Origin: Desulfatiglandales bacterium
GTDB lineage: Bacteria > Desulfobacterota > DSM-4660 > Desulfatiglandales > Desulfatiglandaceae
Length of the DNA: 64,000 nt
Direction: 5' to 3'
NCBI GenBank assembly: GCA_963662465.1
Contig: OY759599.1
Span: forward strand, 7,488,001-7,552,000
Shown: in pieces, positions 5,336-17,312 of the stretch
Layout: the number at the start of each line of letters is the position of its first letter
Position numbering within the stretch: the first letter of the stretch is position 1
The notes under the pieces: model-generated
What the model was told of the DNA's origin: nothing
The model's database searches: none
Seen by the model: the letters and a program-made list of their open reading frames with translations, nothing else
Translations under genes and position numbers: made by a program

Positions 5336-6116
5336 GGCAAAAGTCCTATCCGTGCCCCTTTCACCTCCCGGTACTCCCTTCAATCCGGAAGAACAATGGC
5401 GGCTCAACCGAATATTGTCTTCAGCGGGATTGACTTCCAGGCGAAATGCCGATCAATGGATTCTTTCCAGACGAATTACGGTCAACGGAAAATCGGTTAA
5501 CACACTGGGCGGAAAAGCGTTTTGGGGAAAGGACGACATTCGCGTGGACGGACAAAAAATTCCTCCGCCCCCCCAGAAATGTTATCTGATGCTGAATAAA
5601 CCCTTCGGCTATATTTGCTCCCTGAAAGACCCGGAAGGAAGACCCCTGGTGACGGACCTCCTCAGGGAAGTCCCTGTTCGGGTTTACCCCGTGGGCCGGC
5701 TCGATTTTGACACCCTCGGACTTTTGCTTTTGACCAATGACGGAGAATTCGCCCATCACCTCACCCATCCGAGATTTCATATCCCCAAGACCTACAAGGC
5801 GACAGTTTCGGGCGCCATCACCGACGAGGCATTGAAACGCCTCCAAGGGGGAATCACCCTGGAAGACGGACCGGCCGGCCGGGCCAAAACCGACGTCATA
5901 AACCGCAATGATAAAGAGAGCATTCTGAGGATGACCATTACCCAGGGGAAAACCCGTCAGGTTCGGCGCATGCTGGATGCGGTGGGTTTCAAGGTGTTCC
6001 ATCTGATCCGGACCAGCTTTGGAACCCTGCGTCTCGGAGACTTAAAAATCGGCCATTATCGATATCTAGATTCACAGGAAGTCCTGGAATTAAAAAAAAT
6101 GGCAGGAATAGGATGA
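5229..6116 (+). CDS. rluB: 23S rRNA pseudouridine synthase (RluB/RsuA family); start uncertain
   Basis: S4 domain (RLNRILSSAGLTSRR), LNKP, YPVGRLD; scpAB-rluB synteny. Confidence 0.88.
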   Translation: MKHKRPRPTRADSRRSQPSWKKKSNRNPETRNLRPEAKVLSVPLSPPGTPFNPEEQWRLNRILSSAGLTSRRNADQWILSRRITVNGKSVNTLGGKAFWGKDDIRVDGQKIPPPPQKCYLMLNKPFGYICSLKDPEGRPLVTDLLREVPVRVYPVGRLDFDTLGLLLLTNDGEFAHHLTHPRFHIPKTYKATVSGAITDEALKRLQGGITLEDGPAGRAKTDVINRNDKESILRMTITQGKTRQVRRMLDAVGFKVFHLIRTSFGTLRLGDLKIGHYRYLDSQEVLELKKMAGIG

Positions 6117-6189
6117 TTTTTATTTACAGCTTCAAATCAATAATGTATCTTGTGCGAACTTTGCGGCTCATCGGGCCGACAGCAAGACC

Positions 6190-6264
6190 GGGCGATTAAC
6201 TCAGTGGGAGAGTGCCATCCTCACACGGTGGAAGTCCGGGGTTCAAATCCCCGATCGCCCACCA
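6190..6264 (+). tRNA. tRNA-Val (CAC)
   Basis: GGGCGAT/ATCGCCC acceptor stem, anticodon arm CCATC-CTCACAC-GGTGG, T-loop GTTCAAATC, encoded CCA. Confidence 0.95.
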
Positions 6265-6275
6265 GTAAAATCAAT

Positions 6276-6308
6276 GGGTTACGGTTCATATCGTAGCCCT
6301 TTTTTTTT
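6276..6308 (+). terminator. Rho-independent terminator after tRNA-Val
   Basis: GGGTTACG...CGTAGCCC stem followed by T9. Confidence 0.7.
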
Positions 6309-6439
6309 GGATGGTCTCCATTTGGTCTCCATTTTCTGAAAAGACCGTATTTTCCAACTTACAGGCGACCTTTTGGTTGGTCGGTTTCATCAGGTGAGAG
6401 TATACATTCAAGGTTACCGTAGGGCTTGAATGCCGCAGC

Positions 6440-6787
6440 GTGTTTGACAGTGATGTTGCCCTTAGAGTTCGGGAACTCGTGAGACAGACCTGCGAACGTT
6501 TCGAAATCCAGATAGTGCGTGGTGTGGTCAGCAAGGATCACGTGCATATTCTCGTTTCGGCGCCACCAAATATTTCCCCTTCGGACATAATGCGAAGGGT
6601 GAAGGGAAGGGCGTCGCGAAAGATCTTTGAGGAATTCCCACACCTGAAGAAACGATACTGGGGTAAGCATTTCTGAGTGCGGGGGTATTTCTGTGTCACA
6701 TCTGGCGAGCTTACCAAGGACATGATTCAAGAGTATCTTGAGCACCATTTTGAAAAAGACCCAAACGATCGTTTCGATATCGAATAA
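6440..6787 (+). pseudogene. tnpA: IS200/IS605 TnpA (Y1 HUH) transposase, 5'-truncated, with internal stop
   Basis: DHVHIL HUH motif; YWGKHF*VRGYF with TGA at 6674 where TGG is expected; frame continues to TAA at 6785-6787. Confidence 0.9.
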
Positions 6788-6835
6788 TTTACCGGCTAAA
6801 GCCGGTCTTGCTGAACTTTCAGTCCGTGCTTTTAA

Positions 6836-6866
6836 ACCCACCGTCTTCAAGACGGTGGTTGTTTAG
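6836..6866. mobile_element. IS200-family right-end hairpin
   Basis: CCACCGTCT-TCA-AGACGGTGG palindrome downstream of tnpA. Confidence 0.7.
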
Positions 6867-7145
6867 TATCCCCCCTATCATAGCAAGTACAATCCGGTTG
6901 AAAGATGTTGGGGAATATTGGAGGGACATTGGAACGGAGAAATATTGGATTCAATATCAAAAGCAGTCAATTGGGCATCTACGATGACATGGAAAGGGAT
7001 AAAGCCCATTGTCACGTTGGTGGAAAAGGCATATAAGAAGGGAATCCGGCTTACAAAAAAAGAAATGAAACCTTACGAAAACAGAATTAAACGTTCCGAC
7101 ACACTGCCCAAATGGGATGTACTTATTGAATCCGGAGTTGGGTAG
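6867..7145 (+). pseudogene. ISAzo13-family transposase C-terminal fragment
   Basis: YPPYHSKYNPVERCWGILEGHWNG...MTWKG...LPKWDV; starts abruptly at the IS200 right end. Confidence 0.8.
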
Positions 7146-7263
7146 TTTATTTCTTGTGAATTCCCTTAAGGCTTTACTGGTTGAATTTTCTTTCATTTAA
7201 AAAAATATCAGAAGTCGTACCATAGGTCCGGAAGAAAAGGCTTTGACGGTTATTCCATGGACT

Positions 7264-7854
7264 TTAAAACAATCCCAGTTCCCTGCCCCGTTTTACGGCC
7301 GAAGGATATTTGTTCATGATTGCCTCCATTTCATCCTTTCCGTTCGCCATACGAATATCATCAATATGCCAGCCCGGCGCCACCATGACCCCGTAAAGCC
7401 CCCAGTTGTAATGGGGATCTTCCTTTTTAACGAATCCCATCCATGTGCCGGCGGGAATGACCTTCTGCATGACCTGCCCCTCGTCCACTCGGGGGCCCAG
7501 AACCACCTCCTCCCAGGAACCATCCCCGTAGAGCAGCATCTGAACCATGGGGGCGCCCCCATGATACAGCAGAATTTCATCGGACGTAAGAATATGCCAG
7601 GGATCAATGGGCACATCCCGGGTCATGAGGTAGTAGATGAGGGAAGCGGCGACGCGATCTTTGTCCATATCCACTCTGAGCTTCGATGCGTAGGTGGGTT
7701 TGAAATATCCCGGGCAGGCGTCATCGCCCATGGGTGCAAGGTTCAGGGCCTTGATAACTTGACCGGTCGTCAAAGGCCGATCTTTTTTGACCGTTGCGCA
7801 CCCCAGGGCCATAACCAATATTCCTAAAATCATCGCACGAAAAATTGCCGTCAT
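7264..7854 (-). CDS. Cupin-domain (DUF985/Cupin_5-like) lipoprotein
   Basis: Lipobox MALGC after a hydrophobic stretch; SLIYYL, WHILTSDEILLYHGG, VIPAGTW, VAPGW; TGATG overlap with upstream gene. Confidence 0.8.
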   Translation of the reverse strand: MTAIFRAMILGILVMALGCATVKKDRPLTTGQVIKALNLAPMGDDACPGYFKPTYASKLRVDMDKDRVAASLIYYLMTRDVPIDPWHILTSDEILLYHGGAPMVQMLLYGDGSWEEVVLGPRVDEGQVMQKVIPAGTWMGFVKKEDPHYNWGLYGVMVAPGWHIDDIRMANGKDEMEAIMNKYPSAVKRGRELGLF

Positions 7855-10442
7855 CACAACCCCCCTTGATCCTTTCCGCATGGGTCCCCATGCTTGTCGA
7901 TATTCACATCCACGGCATGGATGCCGGGGTCATATGAATGTCCGTCTTCATGCCGGGATACAAAGCCCGCCAAAACACTGTATAGTTCTTCGAATACGCC
8001 GTCAATCACTTCTCCGGGCACCCCGTAATAGAGGAAATTGATGGGCATGGAATCCCCCAGCAGGTATAAATCTTTGTGGGGAAAAGGGAAATCCGGGGGG
8101 GTCCCGGGTTTTTTTTCAAAAACAAACTGCACGTGATGACCCTGCAGGATCTGGTTTTGAGGGTCTTTGATGGGGTGTTTTTCGATGCGAACATTATGCC
8201 CGCCAATGTTTGGCCGGTCCGCGGTGGACAGTATTTCGATCCAGGCGGTCAGGCTTTCAAACTCCACGGTCTTGGTGGAGCCGCTTGCAAAAAACAGCTC
8301 TTTGGCCGATCCCTCCAGAATCAATTTTTCGAAAAAATCTTTGTTCAAAACCGAAACCCCGGTGACCCCCAGAAAGAGATCCAGTGGTTCCCAGTCTTCC
8401 TTAACCAGGTTGTCAATATGGGAGAATTCCTTTATGCCCGTTTCTTTTTTGTCAACATTTCTGATGTCAAGGCCCGATGCGGTTCCATGGGACACCCGCC
8501 CGGCCATGGCTTTCATCAAAAATCGGCCGATGTTGCCCCGGCTTCCCAGCACCAGGGCATGCCGGTGCATCATGCATTTTCCGAGACCGTTGAAGATGGC
8601 TTCCACGGCGGCAAGGATCGAATAGGCGCAGGCCTCGGCTTCGACAACGTTCTTATACCGGGACGTGGCGATGGTAAAGGCGGGAAACGCAAGCCCTCCG
8701 CACGCCTTTTCCACCGCCTGTAAATGATAATAACCGTTGGCCGTATGCTCAAATGTGGCGGGAACAAGCTTCTTGAGCCACTCCTTCAGCAAAATATCGG
8801 TTTGCATTTCAAATGGAATTTCCACGTTGAATCGTTCCAGGGCATGGGCCAGGGTTTTTTGTTCATGACACCATTGGTTCAGGATCGGCGCCAGATACCC
8901 CCCATCCTCGATCAGGAGCAGTTTTCGACCTTCCTTTTCGGCTGCAAAGGCCTCTTTGAAAAAGAGATGTCCGGCGCTTAAGCGCATGGAACTCAGGTAG
9001 TTGCCTCGCAGGGATCTTAATGCCCGGTCCAGGTGCGCCAGGCTTTTCAAGGGGGAATACTGGCGGGAGAGGATGTACGCGCCGTCCACAGAATCCCGCA
9101 GTTCAATGCGCTGGAGGGCATAAAAGCGGAAACGCCGGTCGGGCATGCTCAGCATGTCCTCCAGATGAAATCCGGGTACAATTCCCTGGTAGCGGATAAA
9201 AAGGGTGGTGAGAAATCCGCAATGGGACGCGTCCAGGGCCTTGACAAACCCCAACACTTCCGATGTGGCGTGATGAATCAGGAGAACCCGATAATTTTTG
9301 AGGATCCCCTGGGGCGCTTTCTGCTGGGTCTGTAGAAGATTCGGCATCCGTCTCAGGTGGGCCTGCATGTCCGGCTGCTTTCGCCGCTCACCAATGCTGA
9401 TGTTGAGCATGGCCCCTTTTCTGGACAGGTCCATGTAAACCCGGTCCCCTTTGTCAACCATCTCCAGGGTATTTCCCAAAACCAGGGTTTTGACGAGTCC
9501 TTCATCTTCCAGCAGCAACAGTATTTTGCTGATTTGCAGAACGAAAACAAAATTCGGGTCCAGGAGCAGCTTTTCCGATATTGCCTGTGTCCATCTGAAC
9601 ACGGCGCCGGTGATGTTTCTTAGCCCTGATGCGATCAGCAGTTCAAAAAGGGCCGCCTGCCGCCCCGGAATCTCAATATATTCGTTATGCTGGTTCTGGC
9701 ATTCCCGGTGAATGCCGGTGAAAATCTGCTCCGCCATGATGGCGATGTCCTGGCGGTAATGGCTGCGTCCGATTTCGTTGACCACCCGGTGGGGTATCCT
9801 TTTCAGAAACAGGCGCGATTGATTCCCGTCTTCGATGGTGAGGCGAAGGAAGCGTCCTTCACGGTCATACTCCAGCAGAATAAAATAGCCGTGCGCCCCT
9901 TCACAGGTGGTGTGAAAGGGAAAGAGCATGGCGGGATGCTCATGTTCATCCGGCCCGCTGTTTTCATCCTTTTCCGTTTCAAAAGCGCCTGGGAAGAGCA
10001 GTCCGCCCCATCGGGGCGTTTGAACCGCGTCAAACACGAGGCGCAGGTGACGGATAAAGTCTTCCGGGTTTTCCAACAGATTGCGCGCCACCGGACCCCG
10101 GGCATAGACCACCACATGGGTGACGCCCAAGGCCGCCAGTTCAGGGGTATTTTCGGAATCCACCATGACCCGTGTCAGGATGTCCACCTGCGAATGACGG
10201 CATTCCTCCATCACCTGTTTGGCCAGGGAGCTGACAAAACCGGGAATTCCCGAAAAGACCCGCATGTTTGTCATGTCAATGAGGAAGCTGCCGTCTTCCT
10301 GTTCCATGAGGGGGATTCCGAAGGAGGTCAGTTGCGCGCCATGGGGCACAGGTATATCCGGCTTCTCTTTTTTAAAGCGAGGCGCATGCATGAGATTGCT
10401 GAGGATCGAGCCGATCTGTTTTTTAGGCGCCCTGTCTTCCAA
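7854..10442 (-). CDS. 862-aa protein: unknown N-terminal region plus divergent S-adenosylhomocysteine-hydrolase-like NAD-binding C-terminal region
   Basis: Long ORF with RBS; motifs IHHAT, EDGGY, EHTANG, KNVVE, GSRGNIG, VTG, LLGDSMPINF occur in SAHH order. Confidence 0.7.
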   Translation of the reverse strand: MEDRAPKKQIGSILSNLMHAPRFKKEKPDIPVPHGAQLTSFGIPLMEQEDGSFLIDMTNMRVFSGIPGFVSSLAKQVMEECRHSQVDILTRVMVDSENTPELAALGVTHVVVYARGPVARNLLENPEDFIRHLRLVFDAVQTPRWGGLLFPGAFETEKDENSGPDEHEHPAMLFPFHTTCEGAHGYFILLEYDREGRFLRLTIEDGNQSRLFLKRIPHRVVNEIGRSHYRQDIAIMAEQIFTGIHRECQNQHNEYIEIPGRQAALFELLIASGLRNITGAVFRWTQAISEKLLLDPNFVFVLQISKILLLLEDEGLVKTLVLGNTLEMVDKGDRVYMDLSRKGAMLNISIGERRKQPDMQAHLRRMPNLLQTQQKAPQGILKNYRVLLIHHATSEVLGFVKALDASHCGFLTTLFIRYQGIVPGFHLEDMLSMPDRRFRFYALQRIELRDSVDGAYILSRQYSPLKSLAHLDRALRSLRGNYLSSMRLSAGHLFFKEAFAAEKEGRKLLLIEDGGYLAPILNQWCHEQKTLAHALERFNVEIPFEMQTDILLKEWLKKLVPATFEHTANGYYHLQAVEKACGGLAFPAFTIATSRYKNVVEAEACAYSILAAVEAIFNGLGKCMMHRHALVLGSRGNIGRFLMKAMAGRVSHGTASGLDIRNVDKKETGIKEFSHIDNLVKEDWEPLDLFLGVTGVSVLNKDFFEKLILEGSAKELFFASGSTKTVEFESLTAWIEILSTADRPNIGGHNVRIEKHPIKDPQNQILQGHHVQFVFEKKPGTPPDFPFPHKDLYLLGDSMPINFLYYGVPGEVIDGVFEELYSVLAGFVSRHEDGHSYDPGIHAVDVNIDKHGDPCGKDQGGL

Positions 10443-10465
10443 TATTTTTGTCTCCCCCTATTTTA

Positions 10466-11509
10466 TCACGTTTGATGATCATCGTCGCCGGTTCGAAGTC
10501 GCAGGTCCCCGGCTTTTTTCTTGAGGGTTTTAAAATAATCCGAACCGGTGATTTTTTTTAAATCCGCATCCTGTTTGGTTCGATCGATTTTGACCCTTAA
10601 TGTTTTGACCTGGCGTTGCAGATCCTGTTCTCGTTTTTGAACGGCCTTGACCATATTGGAAAATACCCCTGCCAGGGTTCCCAGTTCATCGGGGCGGCTG
10701 CTGATGGCATGCAATTGGTTCACATGGGAATAATCACCGTCAGCCACCCGGCGGGCTTCATCCGTCAGGTTTATGATGGGGGCGGTAATTTTTTTTGAGG
10801 AGACCGCGCATACGGCAAGACCGATAATCAGAACCACCAGGGTAAGGGTCCCGACGGTATAAAGTTCCTCCACCCGGATCTTCTCCCGCATGGTGATCAT
10901 GATGCTGCAGATCCAGGTGGCCAGGACCGTTAGGATCAGCAGGTAATAGACGGCCAGGAGGGTGCGCATTTCAATGCGGGAAACCAGCAGATGAACGGCC
11001 TGCATGATGGGCGGCACCAGAATGAAGGCCCACAAGGTATCCGTGATGAAGATGGGCAGAAAAAAACCGAACAGGGCCTGGTGGAAAGGAATCCGGCCCA
11101 GCCACCACTCCACGCCCGTTGAAAAGGCGAAGGGCAGGCTGGACGCCAGCAACAGCAGAATCAGCAATTTACTGAAGGCGGCAATGGAAAGCACCGGCTT
11201 GATGCCCAACAACCCCGCAAGACCCGGAATAAACCCCATGAGTCCGTTGGCGAAGCTCCAATGAATCGCAAATAAAGGTCCCTTGCCCGCAATGGCGTAT
11301 CCGAGCATGTCGCCTAAGCTCCCACAGAAAAACCCCGCCGCCGGGCCGTACCATATCCCCATGAACATGGGCAGAACCACCTGGGGGCGCAACTCGGCAA
11401 AGTTGCATCCCGGTAGATAATATTTCCCTGACAAGAAATTGGCGAACCCGTAAACGCACCCAAAGGCGAGGCATATGCTGGAGATTTTGAGGGCGTTTCG
11501 TGAGGTCAT
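10466..11509 (-). CDS. Membrane protein: ECF S-component-like domain, HAMP domain and coiled-coil tail
   Basis: LRPQVVLPMFMGIWYGPAAGFFCGSLGD and NGLMGFIPGL (S-component-like); ITAPIINL...RPDELGTLAGVFSNM (HAMP). Confidence 0.75.
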   Translation of the reverse strand: MTSRNALKISSICLAFGCVYGFANFLSGKYYLPGCNFAELRPQVVLPMFMGIWYGPAAGFFCGSLGDMLGYAIAGKGPLFAIHWSFANGLMGFIPGLAGLLGIKPVLSIAAFSKLLILLLLASSLPFAFSTGVEWWLGRIPFHQALFGFFLPIFITDTLWAFILVPPIMQAVHLLVSRIEMRTLLAVYYLLILTVLATWICSIMITMREKIRVEELYTVGTLTLVVLIIGLAVCAVSSKKITAPIINLTDEARRVADGDYSHVNQLHAISSRPDELGTLAGVFSNMVKAVQKREQDLQRQVKTLRVKIDRTKQDADLKKITGSDYFKTLKKKAGDLRLRTGDDDHQT

Positions 11510-11524
11510 GGGTCTTTCACAACC

Positions 11525-12340
11525 TTATTGGTTCAACGCCCTTGCCACCCTTTTCAGATCGGCGACAATGGGATGGTCGGGAAAGCGAACCGCGAAAATA
11601 TCATGACTGGCCAGGCCCATCATTTCATCGGAATGGGGGATGACGGCCGCCACGGGGCAATGATAGGTGCGGGACACCGTCTCGCGGATCTGTTCAAAAT
11701 CGAACGTTAAAGGCGCCTTATTGATGAGGATCATCATTTGGGGCACCTCCAGTTCCCTGGCCACTTCCACTGTCAATCCGGTTCCCTGGTAGTCCTGATA
11801 ATCGGGGCGCATGACCACCAGCAGGGCGTTTGAAATGGCGATGGAAAGCAGGGTCTCCTCGTTTAAGCCGGGATGGGTATCGATCACCAGGACATCCAGG
11901 TTCAAGGCTTTGATCAGGTCCCTGAAGCCGTCGCTGAGCAGGTTGATATCGTAACCGTCATGCAGGACCCTGGCGATATCGGCGGCATTGACGCTGGAGG
12001 GGATCAGGTACACGGCGCCGGTGCATTCCGGTCCCATAACGTCGGTGACGTCGCATGCGGTCTGCTCGATAGGGCATTTCCCCCACAGGTAATCATTCAA
12101 GGAATAAACCGCATCGTCTTCGTCCAACCCGAAAATCACGTGGATCCCCGGGGACTGGATGTCCGTGTCCACCACCCCCACCCGGAGTCCCTCCATGGCG
12201 TAGAGGGCCGCCAGGTTGGCGGATGTATTGGATTTTCCGGTTCCCCCCCTGAAGGAGTGAACCGATATTATTTTGGCCATTGATGATGTTTCCGCCGTTG
12301 TTTGCATTTCCGTTTGTCGGGATATGACGCCATTGTTCAT
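11525..12340 (-). CDS. MinD/ParA-family ATPase (real start may be 12280)
   Basis: Deviant Walker A SFRGGTGKS, VDTDIQSPG, IDTHPGL, INK. Confidence 0.88.
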   Translation of the reverse strand: MNNGVISRQTEMQTTAETSSMAKIISVHSFRGGTGKSNTSANLAALYAMEGLRVGVVDTDIQSPGIHVIFGLDEDDAVYSLNDYLWGKCPIEQTACDVTDVMGPECTGAVYLIPSSVNAADIARVLHDGYDINLLSDGFRDLIKALNLDVLVIDTHPGLNEETLLSIAISNALLVVMRPDYQDYQGTGLTVEVARELEVPQMMILINKAPLTFDFEQIRETVSRTYHCPVAAVIPHSDEMMGLASHDIFAVRFPDHPIVADLKRVARALNQ

Positions 12341-12366
12341 GTGAACCCGTTGTTTTCAAGCTGGAA

Positions 12367-12395
12367 AGTATAGGTCAGGGGATGTTTTGAGTCAA
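12367..12395 (-). promoter_or_regulatory. sigma70-type promoter of the MinD operon
   Basis: Minus strand TTGACT-N17-TATACT. Confidence 0.65.
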
Positions 12396-12766
12396 TAGCA
12401 ACCGACGGCATGCAGCAATTCTAAATTTGAACGGGGTCTAAACATTTCACGGGAATCCGTGCAATGAGCGCTATCAGATACCCTCTGTTATACCCTTGAA
12501 AAGCCTTGACATCTCCTTCTATTTATAATTAAAAACAGTTGACCCTTGCTAAAAGTGGCAAGGAAATCCCGCCGTTCTTTTGTATCGAATCGTAAATGAA
12601 TGAAAAATCCGTGACCGATGAGGCCATGGTCTCTATTTTAGGTGATTATGCCTTTTAACCGGCACTGCTCATTATTGGCGTTACGCGCCGCTTATCTTAG
12701 TTATTATTTTATGGAATGTGGAGTGGAAAGACTTCGAATGTGAAATACTGAGAAGGAAAAAAGACA

Positions 12767-13318
12767 ATGGGGATACCTCAAAGGAAATTATTTACGAAAG
12801 ATGAATATCTGTTGTTGGAAGAAAGAGCAGAAACAAAGCACGAGTTAGTTAGTGGTGAAATATATGCAATGGCTGGGGCTAAAGAAAACCATGTGAAAAT
12901 AACAGGTAATATATTTAGAAATATTGCAAATCATTTACTTGAATCCCCATGTGATGTTTATTCAAGTGATATGAAATTATCAGCAGGGTTTGATTGTTAT
13001 TATCCTGATGTTTTTGTAAAATGCGACCCAGAGGATAATGACGAGTTAGTTAAAGAAAAACCAATACTTATTCTTGAAGTTTTATCAGATTCAACTAAAA
13101 ATTTTGACAGAGGAAATAAACTACAAAATTACCTTAAAATTCCAACTTTGCAAGAATATGTTTTGGTTAGCCAGCAAGAAGTTGAAGTATGGATATACAG
13201 GCGAACAGGAAAAAAATGGGAGATGGAAATTTTGAACGATAATGATGAACTTCATTTTATTTCTATCGATTTGAAAATTCCAGTTAGAGATTTATACGCA
13301 AAAATTTTATTGACTTAA
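12767..13318 (+). CDS. Uma2 (DUF820) family PD-(D/E)XK endonuclease-like protein
   Basis: HELVSGEIYAMAGA..H, YYPDVFV, EVLSDST, YLKIPTLQEYVLVSQ; AT-rich. Confidence 0.9.
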   Translation: MGIPQRKLFTKDEYLLLEERAETKHELVSGEIYAMAGAKENHVKITGNIFRNIANHLLESPCDVYSSDMKLSAGFDCYYPDVFVKCDPEDNDELVKEKPILILEVLSDSTKNFDRGNKLQNYLKIPTLQEYVLVSQQEVEVWIYRRTGKKWEMEILNDNDELHFISIDLKIPVRDLYAKILLT

Positions 13319-13349
13319 AAAAATTAAGAATGCTGCTGCCGATAATCAC

Positions 13350-13808
13350 TCACGAGGAACAAAAGCGGATACTGAATCTCATTCCGAAAGAATATGAGCC
13401 GGGAGCTTCGGAGGAACTGACAAAAATCATCGGCGAATCTCATATGAATACTGAGTCTCCCGAATTGTGAGAAACAATTTCCACCTAGTCCCTTGTGGGG
13501 GGACTGCTGGGTGTGACGCCCACAATGATGTTCTGTTTGCCTCTGTTTCACGAGAGAAGTTTGAGGTAATTGGGATTTTCAATCATAATGTCTTTGAAAG
13601 CAACGACTCAGGTTCTATGGCCGCAGAACGTTCACAGCTTTGGGCTATTTACGAAGAACGTGAACAAAGAGGTACTCTTCTAGGGCAACTATTTTTGGGT
13701 GGCATGGGAGGGCTTGGTATAACGATGTCCGGACATTCAGTATCTGTCGTTCGTGCTGCTCAAAGATATTATCAACTGGAATATACTCGTGAATATTTGC
13801 GGGACTGA
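13350..13808 (+). pseudogene. Degraded hypothetical gene
   Basis: Protein-like segments (NDVLFASV..FEVIGIFNH) in broken frames; no clear start. Confidence 0.35.
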
Positions 13809-13993
13809 GCTCATCTCGCGGCTTTTTAAGAAATTATGAGTGGGCATGTATTGCTAAGCTTTTATTAGGTTTCGCACTAAAAAGCCGGTGAGTATTGTGC
13901 TGGGTGGACGTTGTGCAGGCACGAGAAAAAGGATTGGGATTCTGATATCAATGAATCGACCAATTATCAACCGATGATAGAGGTAATCGACCG

Positions 13994-15103
13994 ATGATTA
14001 ACGAAATCTATATCGACAATTTTCGATGTTTGACAAATTTTCGGATCAAGCCGGGGGACTTTCAACTCTGGCTCGGGGACAATGGTTCAGGCAAAACTTC
14101 AGTGCTGGATGCCTTGCGTTACGTTCAACGGCTGATGCGCGGCGAGCATGTGGAGGATATCTTCAATAGAAACAGCCTGACAATCTGGGATAAAAGGCGA
14201 GATCAGACGATAGGGTTCTCCCTGATGATAGATGACGAAGCGTACAAATACGAATTGACGGTTGAATATGAAAATCAGGAAGATAAACAACGCATTAAGC
14301 GAGAAGAATTAATCTGGAAAGATTCGACCTTTTTCTTGTTCGATGGGCAGGATGCGCATCTCTACCGTATCAATTGGAATACGGGAAAAACAGAAGAGGG
14401 CGCCGTTTTCCCTGCGAATTGGGGTCGTTCGGTGATTCCGACAATTGCACAACGTGACGACAACAAGCCTTTAATCCGGTTCAGGGAAGAACTTGAAAAG
14501 ATTCTGCTGATTCAGCCGGTTCCATTGCTTGTAAAAGACGCCGCTGCATCCGAGTCGCGCAATCTATCGGAACATGCTGAAAATTTTGCCCAGTGGTATC
14601 GCCATCTCTTACAGGAACAACCCTCTATTGGTTATGGGGCAAAACAACTCCTGGAGGACGTTCTCCCGGGTTTCGAACAGTTGAGTCTCAGAGAAATCGG
14701 CGAATCTCGAAAATTGATAGCGACATTCCGCATCGAAGGCAAAGACCGCAACTTCGACTTCATGAATATGTCCGACGGTCAACGTCAATTGATCGTTCTC
14801 TATACAGTTTTGGAAGCGTTGCGCGCTGGAACCTTTTCGACAGTGCTATTTGACGAGCCGGACAATTTCGTTTCAATGCGCGAAATCCAACCCTGGCTTG
14901 AAAACCTTAACGACATCTGCGATGAACCAGACAAACAGGCCCTTATCATATCTCATCATCCTGAAATTGTTAACAAGATGGCAAGAGGCGCGGAGCTGTG
15001 GTTTTCCCGGCAGGCGGGGGCGCATGTTGTCGTAAGGCCTTTCCCCAAAGTAGCCGATTTGCCGCCGGCGGAAGTTATGGCGCGGGGATGGGAAAATGAG
15101 TAA
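13994..15103 (+). CDS. ABC-type AAA_21-like ATPase
   Basis: IDNFRCL, Walker A GDNGSGKT, signature MSDGQRQL, Walker B FDEPDN, ISHHP. Confidence 0.9.
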   Translation: MINEIYIDNFRCLTNFRIKPGDFQLWLGDNGSGKTSVLDALRYVQRLMRGEHVEDIFNRNSLTIWDKRRDQTIGFSLMIDDEAYKYELTVEYENQEDKQRIKREELIWKDSTFFLFDGQDAHLYRINWNTGKTEEGAVFPANWGRSVIPTIAQRDDNKPLIRFREELEKILLIQPVPLLVKDAAASESRNLSEHAENFAQWYRHLLQEQPSIGYGAKQLLEDVLPGFEQLSLREIGESRKLIATFRIEGKDRNFDFMNMSDGQRQLIVLYTVLEALRAGTFSTVLFDEPDNFVSMREIQPWLENLNDICDEPDKQALIISHHPEIVNKMARGAELWFSRQAGAHVVVRPFPKVADLPPAEVMARGWENE

Positions 15104-15647
15104 AGCATCGCAAATTATCGTTTTCTGTGAAGACAAGGCCCACGAGGTGTTCGTAAAACGTTTCCTGAAAAAGGGATGGGGTGTAAAGCCTCGCGCAATC
15201 CGGGTGCCGCCTTATCCAAATGGAAAGAGATCAGGCAAAAAACATGTGTTGGATAACATTTCCCTGGAAGCCGAAGCGCTGCGCGGACGGCACGCCTCGA
15301 CGATCCTGCTGGTGATTCAAGATGCGGACGAACTCTCTGTTGCACAGGTAAAATCCAACTTGGACGCGAAACTTTTGCCTTCCAGAAACAATAATGAGCC
15401 AATAGCCTACATCATACCCAAATGGCATATTGAGACTTGGATAGCCTACCTGGATGGCGAGAATGTTGATGAAGCGGACAAAAACACCTACAAAAACAAC
15501 TATGGCAAAATCTCTGAGCTAAAGGATGCCCATCCCTTTATCGACAGACTTGCAGATAATTGCAGAGAGAATATACAACTCGAATTGCCCCCGAATTCAC
15601 TGGTCGCGGCCTGTGAAGAATTCAATCGAATACGCAGTGCATTATAG
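15096..15647 (+). CDS. Putative TOPRIM-like (DUF4276/RloB-type) partner of the ATPase
   Basis: N-terminal VFCED, central QDAD, IETW; overlaps the ATPase stop. Confidence 0.6.
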   Translation: MSKASQIIVFCEDKAHEVFVKRFLKKGWGVKPRAIRVPPYPNGKRSGKKHVLDNISLEAEALRGRHASTILLVIQDADELSVAQVKSNLDAKLLPSRNNNEPIAYIIPKWHIETWIAYLDGENVDEADKNTYKNNYGKISELKDAHPFIDRLADNCRENIQLELPPNSLVAACEEFNRIRSAL

Positions 15648-16535: not shown

Positions 16536-17312
16536 TTAGGACCAAGCCCAAAGAATGGTTTCTTTCTTCGGAAAATTGGTGGGCTGCCATGGCGCATCTC
16601 CATCAAGAGCCTGTTTGATCTGAACAACAAAATCTTGCGCGTATCGATAGCGCTGTCTTCCGTCTGCAAGATGGGCAATATGCCGGCCGGTTTCGATGAT
16701 GGCTGCCATGGGGAGGAAAAGGATATCGGCAAGCCACTGCTGAAGATTACGCGTCACCTGGGGGATCACCTTTTTTGCCTTTGCATTGCCGTCAGCGAAC
16801 CGGGCCGCACTCTCCAGTTGGGTAAAAATGGCCAACTGATCTGAACAGGTCAGCTGAGGCTTCCTGCCGCCTCTGGCAAAATTATTATACGCAACCCTTA
16901 AATCGGTATTTTGATCAGAGGATGCCTGAGCTACTTCGTATAAAGGTGGGGGAGCAGCCGGCCCGGTGATGCTCTCGGTTTCGATGTGGAGTTCCTCTTC
17001 ATTCCGAACGCTCAATTGAACCGTCAGGGTGTTCCAGTCTTTCTCACTGGTTTCACAGCCAAGAATAAACGATTGGCGGCCACAATAACCCAGTTCATTG
17101 ACACGACCGCGCACAATCCTGTCCGAATCCTGAACTTGATACTGGATGGAACTGAGTTTCTGTCCCTGTGCAAGCCACGAAAGGAGGCGTAGCCCTTCAA
17201 TGGCGTTACTCTTCCCGGATGCGTTGGCGCCGATCAGCATGGTCAACGCCGCCAGAGGAAGCTCTCCTTTTCGACAACTTTTGAAATGATCGAAAAATAT
17301 TTTTGATAACAT
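16536..17312 (-). pseudogene. Truncated AAA_21-like ATPase
   Basis: Walker A GANASGKSN present; no ABC signature or Walker B; homology appears to stop near 16712. Confidence 0.7.

Follow-up and report, generated by a model that had tools for sequence, protein, structure and literature searches.

What does a membrane receptor regulate when it lacks a catalytic output domain and is encoded between a MinD-type ATPase and an 862-aa enzyme-like protein? This question is raised by a cassette of four minus-strand genes in a 64,000-nucleotide stretch of DNA (the window, meaning the whole of the stretch analyzed) from the complete 8.16 Mb genome of a Desulfatiglandales bacterium (OY759599.1, positions 7,488,001-7,552,000). 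From first to last, the genes encode a MinD/ParA-type ATPase, a membrane protein combining an energy-coupling factor (ECF) S-component-like domain with a HAMP domain, an 862-aa protein whose C-terminal part resembles S-adenosylhomocysteine (SAH) hydrolase (SAHH), and a cupin. The cassette is real and conserved, has a three-gene core and corresponds to nothing described in the literature searched; its mechanism we infer. The best reading, held with slightly more reservation than conviction, is that of a kinase-free signaling and metabolic unit in which the sensor controls a NAD-dependent nucleoside enzyme through the ATPase.

According to this reading, the ECF-S-like membrane domain would bind a small ligand outside the cell, the HAMP domain would move the conserved helical tail at the C-terminus, and the tail would switch the adjacent MinD-type ATPase. 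The ATPase would in turn control or recruit the SAHH-fold protein, whose predicted NAD-dependent reaction acts on a purine-nucleoside-type substrate and is distinct from ordinary SAH turnover. An accessory role would fall to the fourth gene: as an exported cupin, its product would bind or modify the ligand on the sensor-facing side; as a zinc dehydrogenase, it would handle the product of the enzyme or recycle NAD.

Three genes form a conserved core

A preliminary description of this locus had proposed a self-contained system of four genes. Homologs co-occurring elsewhere were looked for and found: in all five GTDB loci with a 65-93% relative of the 862-aa protein, the four genes stand in the same order while the flanks differ (the locus titles are Desulfatiglandales, Desulfobacteraceae, Desulfacyla, Desulfobacterales and Desulfatirhabdiaceae). 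DNA similarity to one relative, L001, spans 7264-12634 of the window and ends on the cupin stop codon, which marks the cassette as a discrete unit amid changing surroundings.

For a wider view, 100 loci of the 862-aa family were assembled from the five closest GTDB loci, 15 loci of a phylum sample and 80 of 215 further loci. One weak partial match (L020) was dropped, collapse at 90% identity left 76 loci, and gene content was counted in the 41 of these that have at least 3.5 kb upstream and at least 0.8 kb downstream. ATPase and tail were both present in 24 loci and both absent in 17, and were never separate. Together they were accompanied by a zinc dehydrogenase in 11 of the 41 non-redundant loci, by the cupin in nine and by neither in four; ten loci had only a dehydrogenase beside the 862-aa-type enzyme, and seven had neither ATPase, tail, cupin nor dehydrogenase. 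Cupin and dehydrogenase never occurred in the same locus. The claim of a four-gene system thus describes the closest relatives correctly, but the fourth slot is variable, and the conserved core consists of three genes: ATPase, receptor and 862-aa-type enzyme. As had also been stated, the conserved, self-contained module includes no kinase, cyclase or ECF ATPase gene.

The phylum sample comprised 401 evenly drawn genomes, with few candidates scored per genome, so that weak copies may be missed. The enzyme family was detected in 15 of them (in one only weakly), the ATPase clade in six and the HAMP-tail in the identical six, in each case beside the enzyme gene. None of six same-family genomes has the enzyme, and its distribution is patchy.

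A FastTree phylogeny of the SAHH-fold domain places the cupin-linked enzymes in a single branch (support 0.937), together with two loci without a cupin, and scatters the dehydrogenase-linked enzymes over the tree. Since this branch is single, the cupin was probably recruited once and later, and the locus counts are not independent events. That the genes are neighbors by descent only and share no function could be argued from the related lineages of the five closest loci and from the occurrence of each part on its own. Gene order, however, holds down to 35-40% enzyme identity while the flanks change, two rearranged loci (L059, L098) still keep the gene set together, and fusions exist, each as a single sequence: P0110 joins an SAHH-like domain to Cupin_5, and P0037 joins a zinc dehydrogenase to a full-length member of the 862-aa family. 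We therefore regard descent alone as very improbable, close to negligible.

A second architecture was observed that lacks ATPase and sensor. Here a zinc-dehydrogenase-like gene of 467-495 aa lies directly upstream of the enzyme gene (L097, L101, L105, L106, L109, L113, L030, L034), with a NUDIX gene next in several cases. At another locus (L068:5503-13461) the enzyme gene lies behind an anti-sigma kinase and a dCache-HAMP-SpoIIE receptor, and faces a block of xanthine/uracil permease, STAS and dehydrogenase genes.

The receptor tail and the ATPase

The ATPase gene (12280..11525, minus strand; 251 aa) was identified from its open reading frame (ORF) and labeled by Pfam and NCBIfam scans. Its product matched Pfam CbiA/ParA above the cut-off, and AAA_31 was matched as well, whereas it stayed below every NCBIfam cut-off (TIGR01968, MinD, 47.8 vs 212.9 bits; NF047398, KGGVGR, 67 vs 90 bits). 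The Walker A motif reads RGGTGKS, with Arg at the first (signature) Lys, and is invariant in 52 aligned rows. Also invariant in these rows are the Walker A Lys K16, the DxD sensor D38/D40, the Walker B residue D134 and the conserved Asn N187. The DxD is followed by QSPG, of which P44-G45 (the PG motif after sensor-1) is invariant, and mean column identity is 71%. The protein ends at residue 251, just beyond the stretch that aligns with MinD, and the MinD membrane helix is absent. A septum-site MinD was rejected on these grounds: the signature Lys is Arg, there is no C-terminal membrane helix, the TIGR01968 score lies far below the cut-off, and minC and minE are not among the neighbors. Of 8000 scored candidates, 7965 fall within E<=1e-60, which makes the ATPase clade a large one; it is single-copy in this genome, and it was found on 14 plasmid records among 72,556 plasmids searched.

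The membrane protein gene (11509..10466, minus strand; 347 aa) encodes the ECF S-component-like domain, two further hydrophobic helices, the HAMP domain (31.7 bits, above the Pfam cut-off) and a coiled-coil tail. The conserved part of the tail, residues 293-342 (10484..10633, minus strand), follows the pattern RE..L..V..L.I.ID...I..DYF..L..K..R and is likely the output to the ATPase. A profile of the tail has a single match in the genome, namely gene 2 itself, adjacent to the sole ATPase copy, and a search with the tail only gave 13 close relatives among 28 candidates. Plasmids were surveyed at ten of the 14 ATPase-clade loci, within 7 kb around the ATPase. In six of the ten, from phyla outside that of the host, a tail-bearing protein was present, and these tails sit behind Cache-HAMP, HAMP-only or small coiled-coil fronts (Nostoc, Kovacikia, Deinococcus, Rhizobium). 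Because the tail ends such different proteins, inputs vary while tail and ATPase stay. At L071 the ECF-S-HAMP front recurs in fusion with a SpoIIE phosphatase; next to the fusion are encoded an anti-sigma-type kinase, a dCache-HAMP-tail protein and a second ATPase. Prediction of a complex of ATPase dimer, HAMP-tail dimer and ATP/Mg gave a median of 0.46, with controls at 0.35, 0.00 and 0.00, values that weigh on binding in neither direction. It is highly probable that tail and ATPase work as a pair, and probable, by analogy with the helices of MinE or ParB and their ATPases, that they touch directly. From the sequences, the ECF-S domain would be the sensor, and tail plus ATPase a general output pair.

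For the N-terminal domain, all 35 aligned receptor homologs matched NCBIfam PRK13661 (E<=0.001), and 32 of 35 matched the FolT family; for the gene 2 protein itself all these scores lie below the cut-off. Two homologs pass the Pfam cut-off (58 and 40.3 bits), and profile matches to FolT structures are weak (E 0.13). These likenesses suit an uptake unit, in which the S-component-like domain would import a nucleoside or cofactor via an ECF motor encoded elsewhere and the ATPase, having no membrane helix of its own, would only position the enzyme at the membrane through the tail. Four EcfT/CbiQ-family genes elsewhere in the genome could supply such a motor, but no T or A gene recurs among the neighbors of cassette loci, and eight related loci scanned with Rfam (the window itself lay outside the scan) contained no riboswitch, only a tRNA. 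Sensing is favored by the fusion to HAMP, by the exchange of the front end for Cache domains and by the ECF-S-HAMP-SpoIIE fusion, and uptake is left improbable.

Other settings of the pair were noted. The ATPase clade recurs with AGE epimerase, STAS and GlgX genes on Deinococcus, Nostoc and Streptomyces plasmids and at one enzyme locus (L115, L116, L122, L071), with SpoIIE at three of these (L115, L122, L071); this is possibly a glycogen-linked partner-switching setting. On cyanobacterial plasmids (L117, L119, L120, L124) it lies beside DUF7005-type, cyclic-nucleotide-binding and Nif11/NHLP peptide genes. The L124 tail protein starts with a Nif11 domain, and three tails carry a partial second copy.

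The 862-aa protein

The third gene (10442..7854, minus strand) has a TTG start and encodes an N-terminal region (residues 36-356; 9375..10337, minus strand) followed by an SAHH-fold domain (residues ~357-855; 7857..9374, minus strand) that was delimited by predicted structure and conserved residues. The protein matched no Pfam or NCBIfam family at E<=0.1, including PF05221 and PF00670, and no PDB sequence, and its profile match to the SAHH 7r39 reached only E 0.0044. Its family comprises 213 representatives at E<=0.001. The nearest Atlas clusters, commonest in Spirochaetota and Thermodesulfobacteriota, lack names, and the next clusters partly carry AdoHcyase_NAD. The predicted model is confident (pLDDT 92.7). 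In a Foldseek search the C-terminal half of the model matched SAH hydrolases in all listed rows (best E 2.3e-14), and in a VIA comparison the predicted residues ~357-855 matched 6gbn with Z 26.2 (rmsd 3.4, 374 aligned), the next fold reaching Z 14.5. The label "SAHH-like", missing from the family libraries, was thus confirmed by structure prediction.

Active-site residues were placed by sequence alignment at <20% identity. Residue roles (acid, bases, OH binders, the HxTxE adenine-type fingerprint and the NAD site) follow PMC13406329. By this alignment, the protein appears to keep HxTxE (H391, T393, E395) with the acid His391, the C4' base Asp513, the 3'-OH Thr567 and the general base Lys597, and the position of the SAHH 5'-OH binder seems matched as well. 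The NAD site is kept, with G633/G636/G639 in a GxxGxxG variant, D659 after beta2 and the nicotinamide Asn N802; at the nicotinamide-ribose Thr pair of SAHH stand Ala/Arg568 and Asn569. His, Thr, Asp, Lys, Glu601 and two Gly are retained in 65 of 68 complete rows. The C-terminal Lys/Tyr clamp of SAHH was not seen in the alignment. From these residues, the 862-aa protein is likely to be an active NAD enzyme, and we lean toward a purine nucleoside derivative as its substrate, on which it would perform 3'-oxidation-type chemistry. Two weak hints at nucleosides come from gene neighborhoods: a xanthine/uracil permease gene adjoins the enzyme at L068, and a second cupin copy of this genome adjoins a gene of the nucleoside-deaminase family.

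In the N-terminal ~320 residues the same order of helices and strands occurs twice. The halves align better (profile score 24.5 over 121 columns) than in any of 30 block shuffles (maximum 19.25), so a tandem duplication of an alpha/beta unit of ~140 aa is likely; the hhalign probability is 13.7%. Neither the PDB nor the viral libraries gave the region a Foldseek match at E<=0.001; its best VIA Z was 5.0, the Atlas supplied nothing usable, and no PDB sequence match fell below E 0.19. These nulls show neither a new fold nor a lack of relatives. A search for free-standing N-domains, which is insensitive, returned six proteins. One repeat aligned with RegB (2hx6; Z 3.4, rmsd 5.4, 113 aligned) and RelE/ParE chains came near Z 3, all weak, and weak sequence leads included phage proteins of 130-150 aa, among them a site-specific RNA endonuclease (E 0.16). 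Overall, the RelE/RegB comparison stays at Z ~3 and E 0.03-0.3, with the fold leads in a range that the tool rates as common.

These leads, taken together with the phage endonuclease, would fit a defense or stress switch in which the SAHH-fold domain acts as nucleoside sensor or metabolite-depleting effector, the repeats as a RelE/RegB-like nuclease and the ATPase as a switch of the kind proposed for immune ParA systems. The ATPase has a PG motif as described for the ConB2 assemblage in bioRxiv 10.64898/2026.10.19.760177, the next genes in the window match PADLOC models, and the distribution is patchy, with none of the six same-family genomes having the enzyme. Yet Arg replaces the first Walker A Lys here and the second in ConB2, genes 2-4 match no PADLOC model, and the high conservation of the ATPase noted above speaks against such a role, as does the position of the fold leads in the tool's common range. 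Among 123 flanking ORFs (20 loci, simple ORF calling), eight matched PADLOC at 1e-25, a count taken without a background set, and of these three look like generic ABC ATPases and one like NUDIX. A role in defense is quite improbable on this balance.

Variants of the family were also observed. Three members (P0026, P0027 and L098:4950-8039) have 90-190 extra N-terminal residues that resemble half a HAMP by eye; those of P0026 and P0027 have no Pfam match. A branch without the N-terminal repeats comprises P0079, P0089, P0099, P0101, P0107, P0110, P0127-P0135 and P0144, and some of its members carry HIDxK/HLDxK-like motifs in place of HxTxE, a hint at another substrate.

The fourth gene

In this genome the fourth slot holds a DUF985 (Cupin_5) gene (7854..7264, minus strand; 196 aa), whose product matches PF06172 with 98.3 bits and has a lipoprotein-like leader with Gly-Cys at its end. 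Most of 30 cupin homologs show a hydrophobic leader of this kind, up to Gly-Cys, so the cupin likely resides outside the cytoplasm as a lipoprotein, separated from the enzyme. It is related to yeast Cff1p, and His88 aligns with His96 of 1xe7. Cff1p is needed for the autoinducer-2 (AI-2) mimic MHF (4-hydroxy-5-methylfuran-3(2H)-one) and was crystallized with a nucleotide (PMC8092285), and its Glu44 is required for MHF production (PMC8092285, PMC13267403). The Glu44 position is Cys47 here, and Cys was found in 26 of 30 cassette cupins (three did not display the position and one differed). Membership among MHF synthases was rejected for this Cys.

The cupin bears on a reversed flow of information, in which the enzyme, with cupin or dehydrogenase, would make or destroy a signal, the receptor would sense it and the ATPase would inform targets outside the cassette, as a metabolite-monitoring or autoinducer-like loop. 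In favor, the family of the cupin includes a protein needed for an AI-2 mimic (PMC8092285), and the cupin looks exported, on the sensor-facing side. Moreover, the enzyme occurs without the ATPase, and elsewhere the ATPase clade accompanies GlgX, STAS, SpoIIE or peptide-bacteriocin genes, with both settings combined at L071. Against this stand the Cys at the Glu44 position, the presence of the cupin in only nine of 24 ATPase-linked loci, and the neighborhoods: in the phylum sample the enzyme accompanies every copy of the ATPase clade, and the neighbors yielded no further target gene that recurs. A reversed flow is therefore unlikely, if less so than uptake or defense.

A second DUF985 cupin, 68% identical, is encoded elsewhere in the genome (L126:7127-8321; C1:4187126-4188320) and is followed after one base by a cytidine/deoxycytidylate-deaminase-family gene.

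The genome's own dehydrogenase copy falls in the cassette-type clade. The neighbors of this clade vary over 27 loci; a gene resembling NADH pyrophosphatase (NudC) adjoins it by eye in five of them (L143, L144, L151, L157, L164), confirmed by Pfam in L151. In this genome, the dehydrogenase gene (L125:6445-9118, C1 near 3367200) has a response-regulator GGDEF-like gene on one side and riboflavin synthesis genes on the other, and the same order is found in the same-family genome G140. A riboflavin link, suggested by the position upstream of the rib genes, was set aside, being seen only in these two genomes.

Weighing the proposed mechanism

Several observations weigh against a chain that runs from the sensor through the ATPase to a nucleoside enzyme. 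The enzyme occurs without ATPase or tail in nine of the 15 matching phylum genomes and in 17 of the 41 loci. In these 17 loci it keeps its N-terminal region, so the region need not be an ATPase dock, and the step from ATPase to enzyme is the weakest of the chain; that the ATPase acts on the enzyme, probably through the N-terminal repeats, is a possibility we hold with some doubt. In four of the ten plasmid loci no tail was found within 7 kb of the ATPase. None of the 72,556 plasmids encodes the enzyme, and the ATPase clade far outsizes the enzyme family; the ATPase therefore has other outputs. ATPase and receptor tail had been described as parts of this module, which they are, but the pair is much wider and is also found without the enzyme. 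The ATPase-linked enzymes cluster on the tree, and related genomes are non-independent samples. On the input side, the ECF-S match of the receptor is below curated cut-offs (ECF-ribofla_trS, 23 bits, cut-off 26.7). As to the fourth slot, the dehydrogenase clade is present in 87 of the 401 phylum genomes, in most cases with no enzyme alongside, and a search of two cupin-type genomes (G108, G374) did not find it. The idea that a dehydrogenase is always supplied from elsewhere in the genome was given up, since the clade is common and yet not found in these two.

The remaining points concern the active site. The SAHH Glu that binds the 2'-OH and supports the Lys is His566 (73 of 80 rows), the 2'-OH-binding Asp is Glu601, and the Lys-supporting Asn that follows is Ala/Ser602; the gate His is Ser722 (74 of 76) and the GHP His is Val808 (65 of 73). 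Because the 2'-OH Glu, the Asn, the gate His and the GHP His are replaced, substrate and activity are predictions only; the adjacent conserved Glu565 might stand in for the replaced 2'-OH Glu. The genome also carries a separate, ordinary metK-ahcY pair, and a housekeeping SAHH identity was rejected for this ahcY. The preliminary description had suggested an S-adenosylmethionine (SAM)/SAH- or nucleoside-like ligand: SAH itself has become doubtful as a substrate through the metK-ahcY pair and the replaced residues, and a nucleoside-like ligand is kept as a suggestion.

Gene boundaries, promoter and neighborhood

The close packing of four minus-strand genes was borne out: their ORFs are separated by 15 bp and 23 bp and then share a 1-base overlap in TGATG. 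The longest ORF of the ATPase starts at 12340, but this ATG is absent from the 92%-identical relative L001 and the homologs have 251 aa, so the start is most likely 12280. Upstream lies the sigma-70-type promoter-like site TTGACT-17-TATACT (12395..12367, minus strand), which matches at 10 of 12 positions and scores best among 13 such sites in 6100-13000. Shuffled sequence yields 6.9 +/- 2.6 sites, so the match by itself is weak. Both hexamers persist in four of ten relatives (L001, L036, L039, L046) while spacer and flanks have diverged, in agreement with the promoter claimed earlier.

The locus had also been assigned to an accessory region after tRNA-Val. The tRNA-Val is in place at 6190-6264, but no repeat of its 3' end marks an integrated island: the 3' end (14-25 bases) is single in the genome, and an island integrated at this tRNA was rejected. 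Between tRNA-Val and cupin, short ORFs at 6286-7196 look by eye like transposase remnants (IS200-like at 6440-6676). Upstream of the cassette, 12767-15647 and 16536-17312 hold genes for a Uma2-family nuclease and for an AAA_21 ABC-ATPase and its 183-aa partner of no family, and a truncated second AAA_21 gene. The Uma2 nuclease and the first AAA_21 protein match PADLOC models (PDC-S03; HEC-01A and others), and these upstream neighbors are absent from the corresponding place in L001.

Significance and comparison with known systems

To our knowledge, the outputs at the ends of membrane receptors are kinases, cyclases, phosphatases, DNA-binding domains or chemotaxis arrays, and the SAH-hydrolase fold is known almost only for the turnover of SAH and S-inosylhomocysteine (SIH). 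The cassette may, as a tentative proposal about which our doubts somewhat prevail, represent a widespread, unnamed signaling route in which kinases, cyclases and transcription factors play no part and receptors reach an Arg-finger ParA-type ATPase over a short helical tail; here a transporter-derived sensor would post-translationally switch the founder of a nucleoside enzyme family that is NAD-dependent and new to the SAH-hydrolase superfamily. Should the pair of tail and ATPase be a true output, a function would be assigned to thousands of "MinD/ParA family" genes and to many receptors that seem to lack an output. The SAH-hydrolase fold would gain a second enzyme family, and the ECF S-component fold a role as sensor. 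With a single receptor, a single ATPase and a single likely target in each genome, the cassette is a compact test case. Caution is due, as all mechanistic steps are drawn from sequence, predicted structure and gene neighborhood. Limited literature searches, which mostly left subscription journals uncovered, revealed no published description of the cassette, in line with the earlier statement that no named system of this composition is known.

With SAH hydrolase, the 862-aa protein shares the fold of residues ~357-855, HxTxE, the catalytic His, Asp and Lys, the Gly loop of the NAD site, the acidic residue and the Asn. It differs in its ~15-18% identity without a Pfam match, in an extra N-terminal region of ~350 aa, in having His, Ser and Val at the 2'-OH Glu, gate His and GHP His, and in being encoded with a sensor and an ATPase. 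The N-terminal membrane domain matches the models of ECF S components (PF07155, PRK13661, FolT) in 35 of 35 homologs, whereas the receptor is fused to two more helices, HAMP and tail, and the cassette has no T or A gene. Like the DUF985 cupins Cff1p/YML079W, the cassette cupin belongs to Cupin_5 and keeps the equivalent of His96 (His88), but it has Cys at the Glu44 position and a lipoprotein-like leader.

The immune ConB2 ParA proteins are described by Li, Burroughs and Aravind (bioRxiv 10.64898/2026.10.19.760177) as having Arg at the second Walker A Lys and a PG motif, with PCTM, APE, HINPO, ParA-wHTH and TIR-ParA among their systems. The main text of this preprint has no HAMP, ECF, Cache, cupin, homocysteine, SAHH, SpoIIE, STAS or dehydrogenase; its supplements may list the clade. 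The cassette shares with ConB2 the PG motif after sensor-1 and the placement of a ParA-type switch next to a variable enzyme and a partner that is helical or a membrane protein. It differs in keeping K16 and having Arg at the first Lys instead, and ConB2 membership was rejected on the Walker A motif.

A parallel in principle is offered by other deviant Walker A ATPases: in MinD-MinE, ParA-ParB and FleN/FlhG, the ATPase is switched by a helix of its partner. The cassette ATPase has the same ParA/MinD fold and motifs, and its dedicated partner has a short, basic, amphipathic-looking helix at the end. It differs in the Arg at the signature Lys and the missing membrane helix, in having a membrane receptor as partner and in the enzyme as neighbor. 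The partner-contact surfaces of MinD/ParA-type ATPases are summarized in bioRxiv 10.64898/2026.10.19.760177. By analogy, and with septum MinD excluded, the cassette would work in the manner of MinD-MinE or ParA-ParB, with the switch located behind a receptor.

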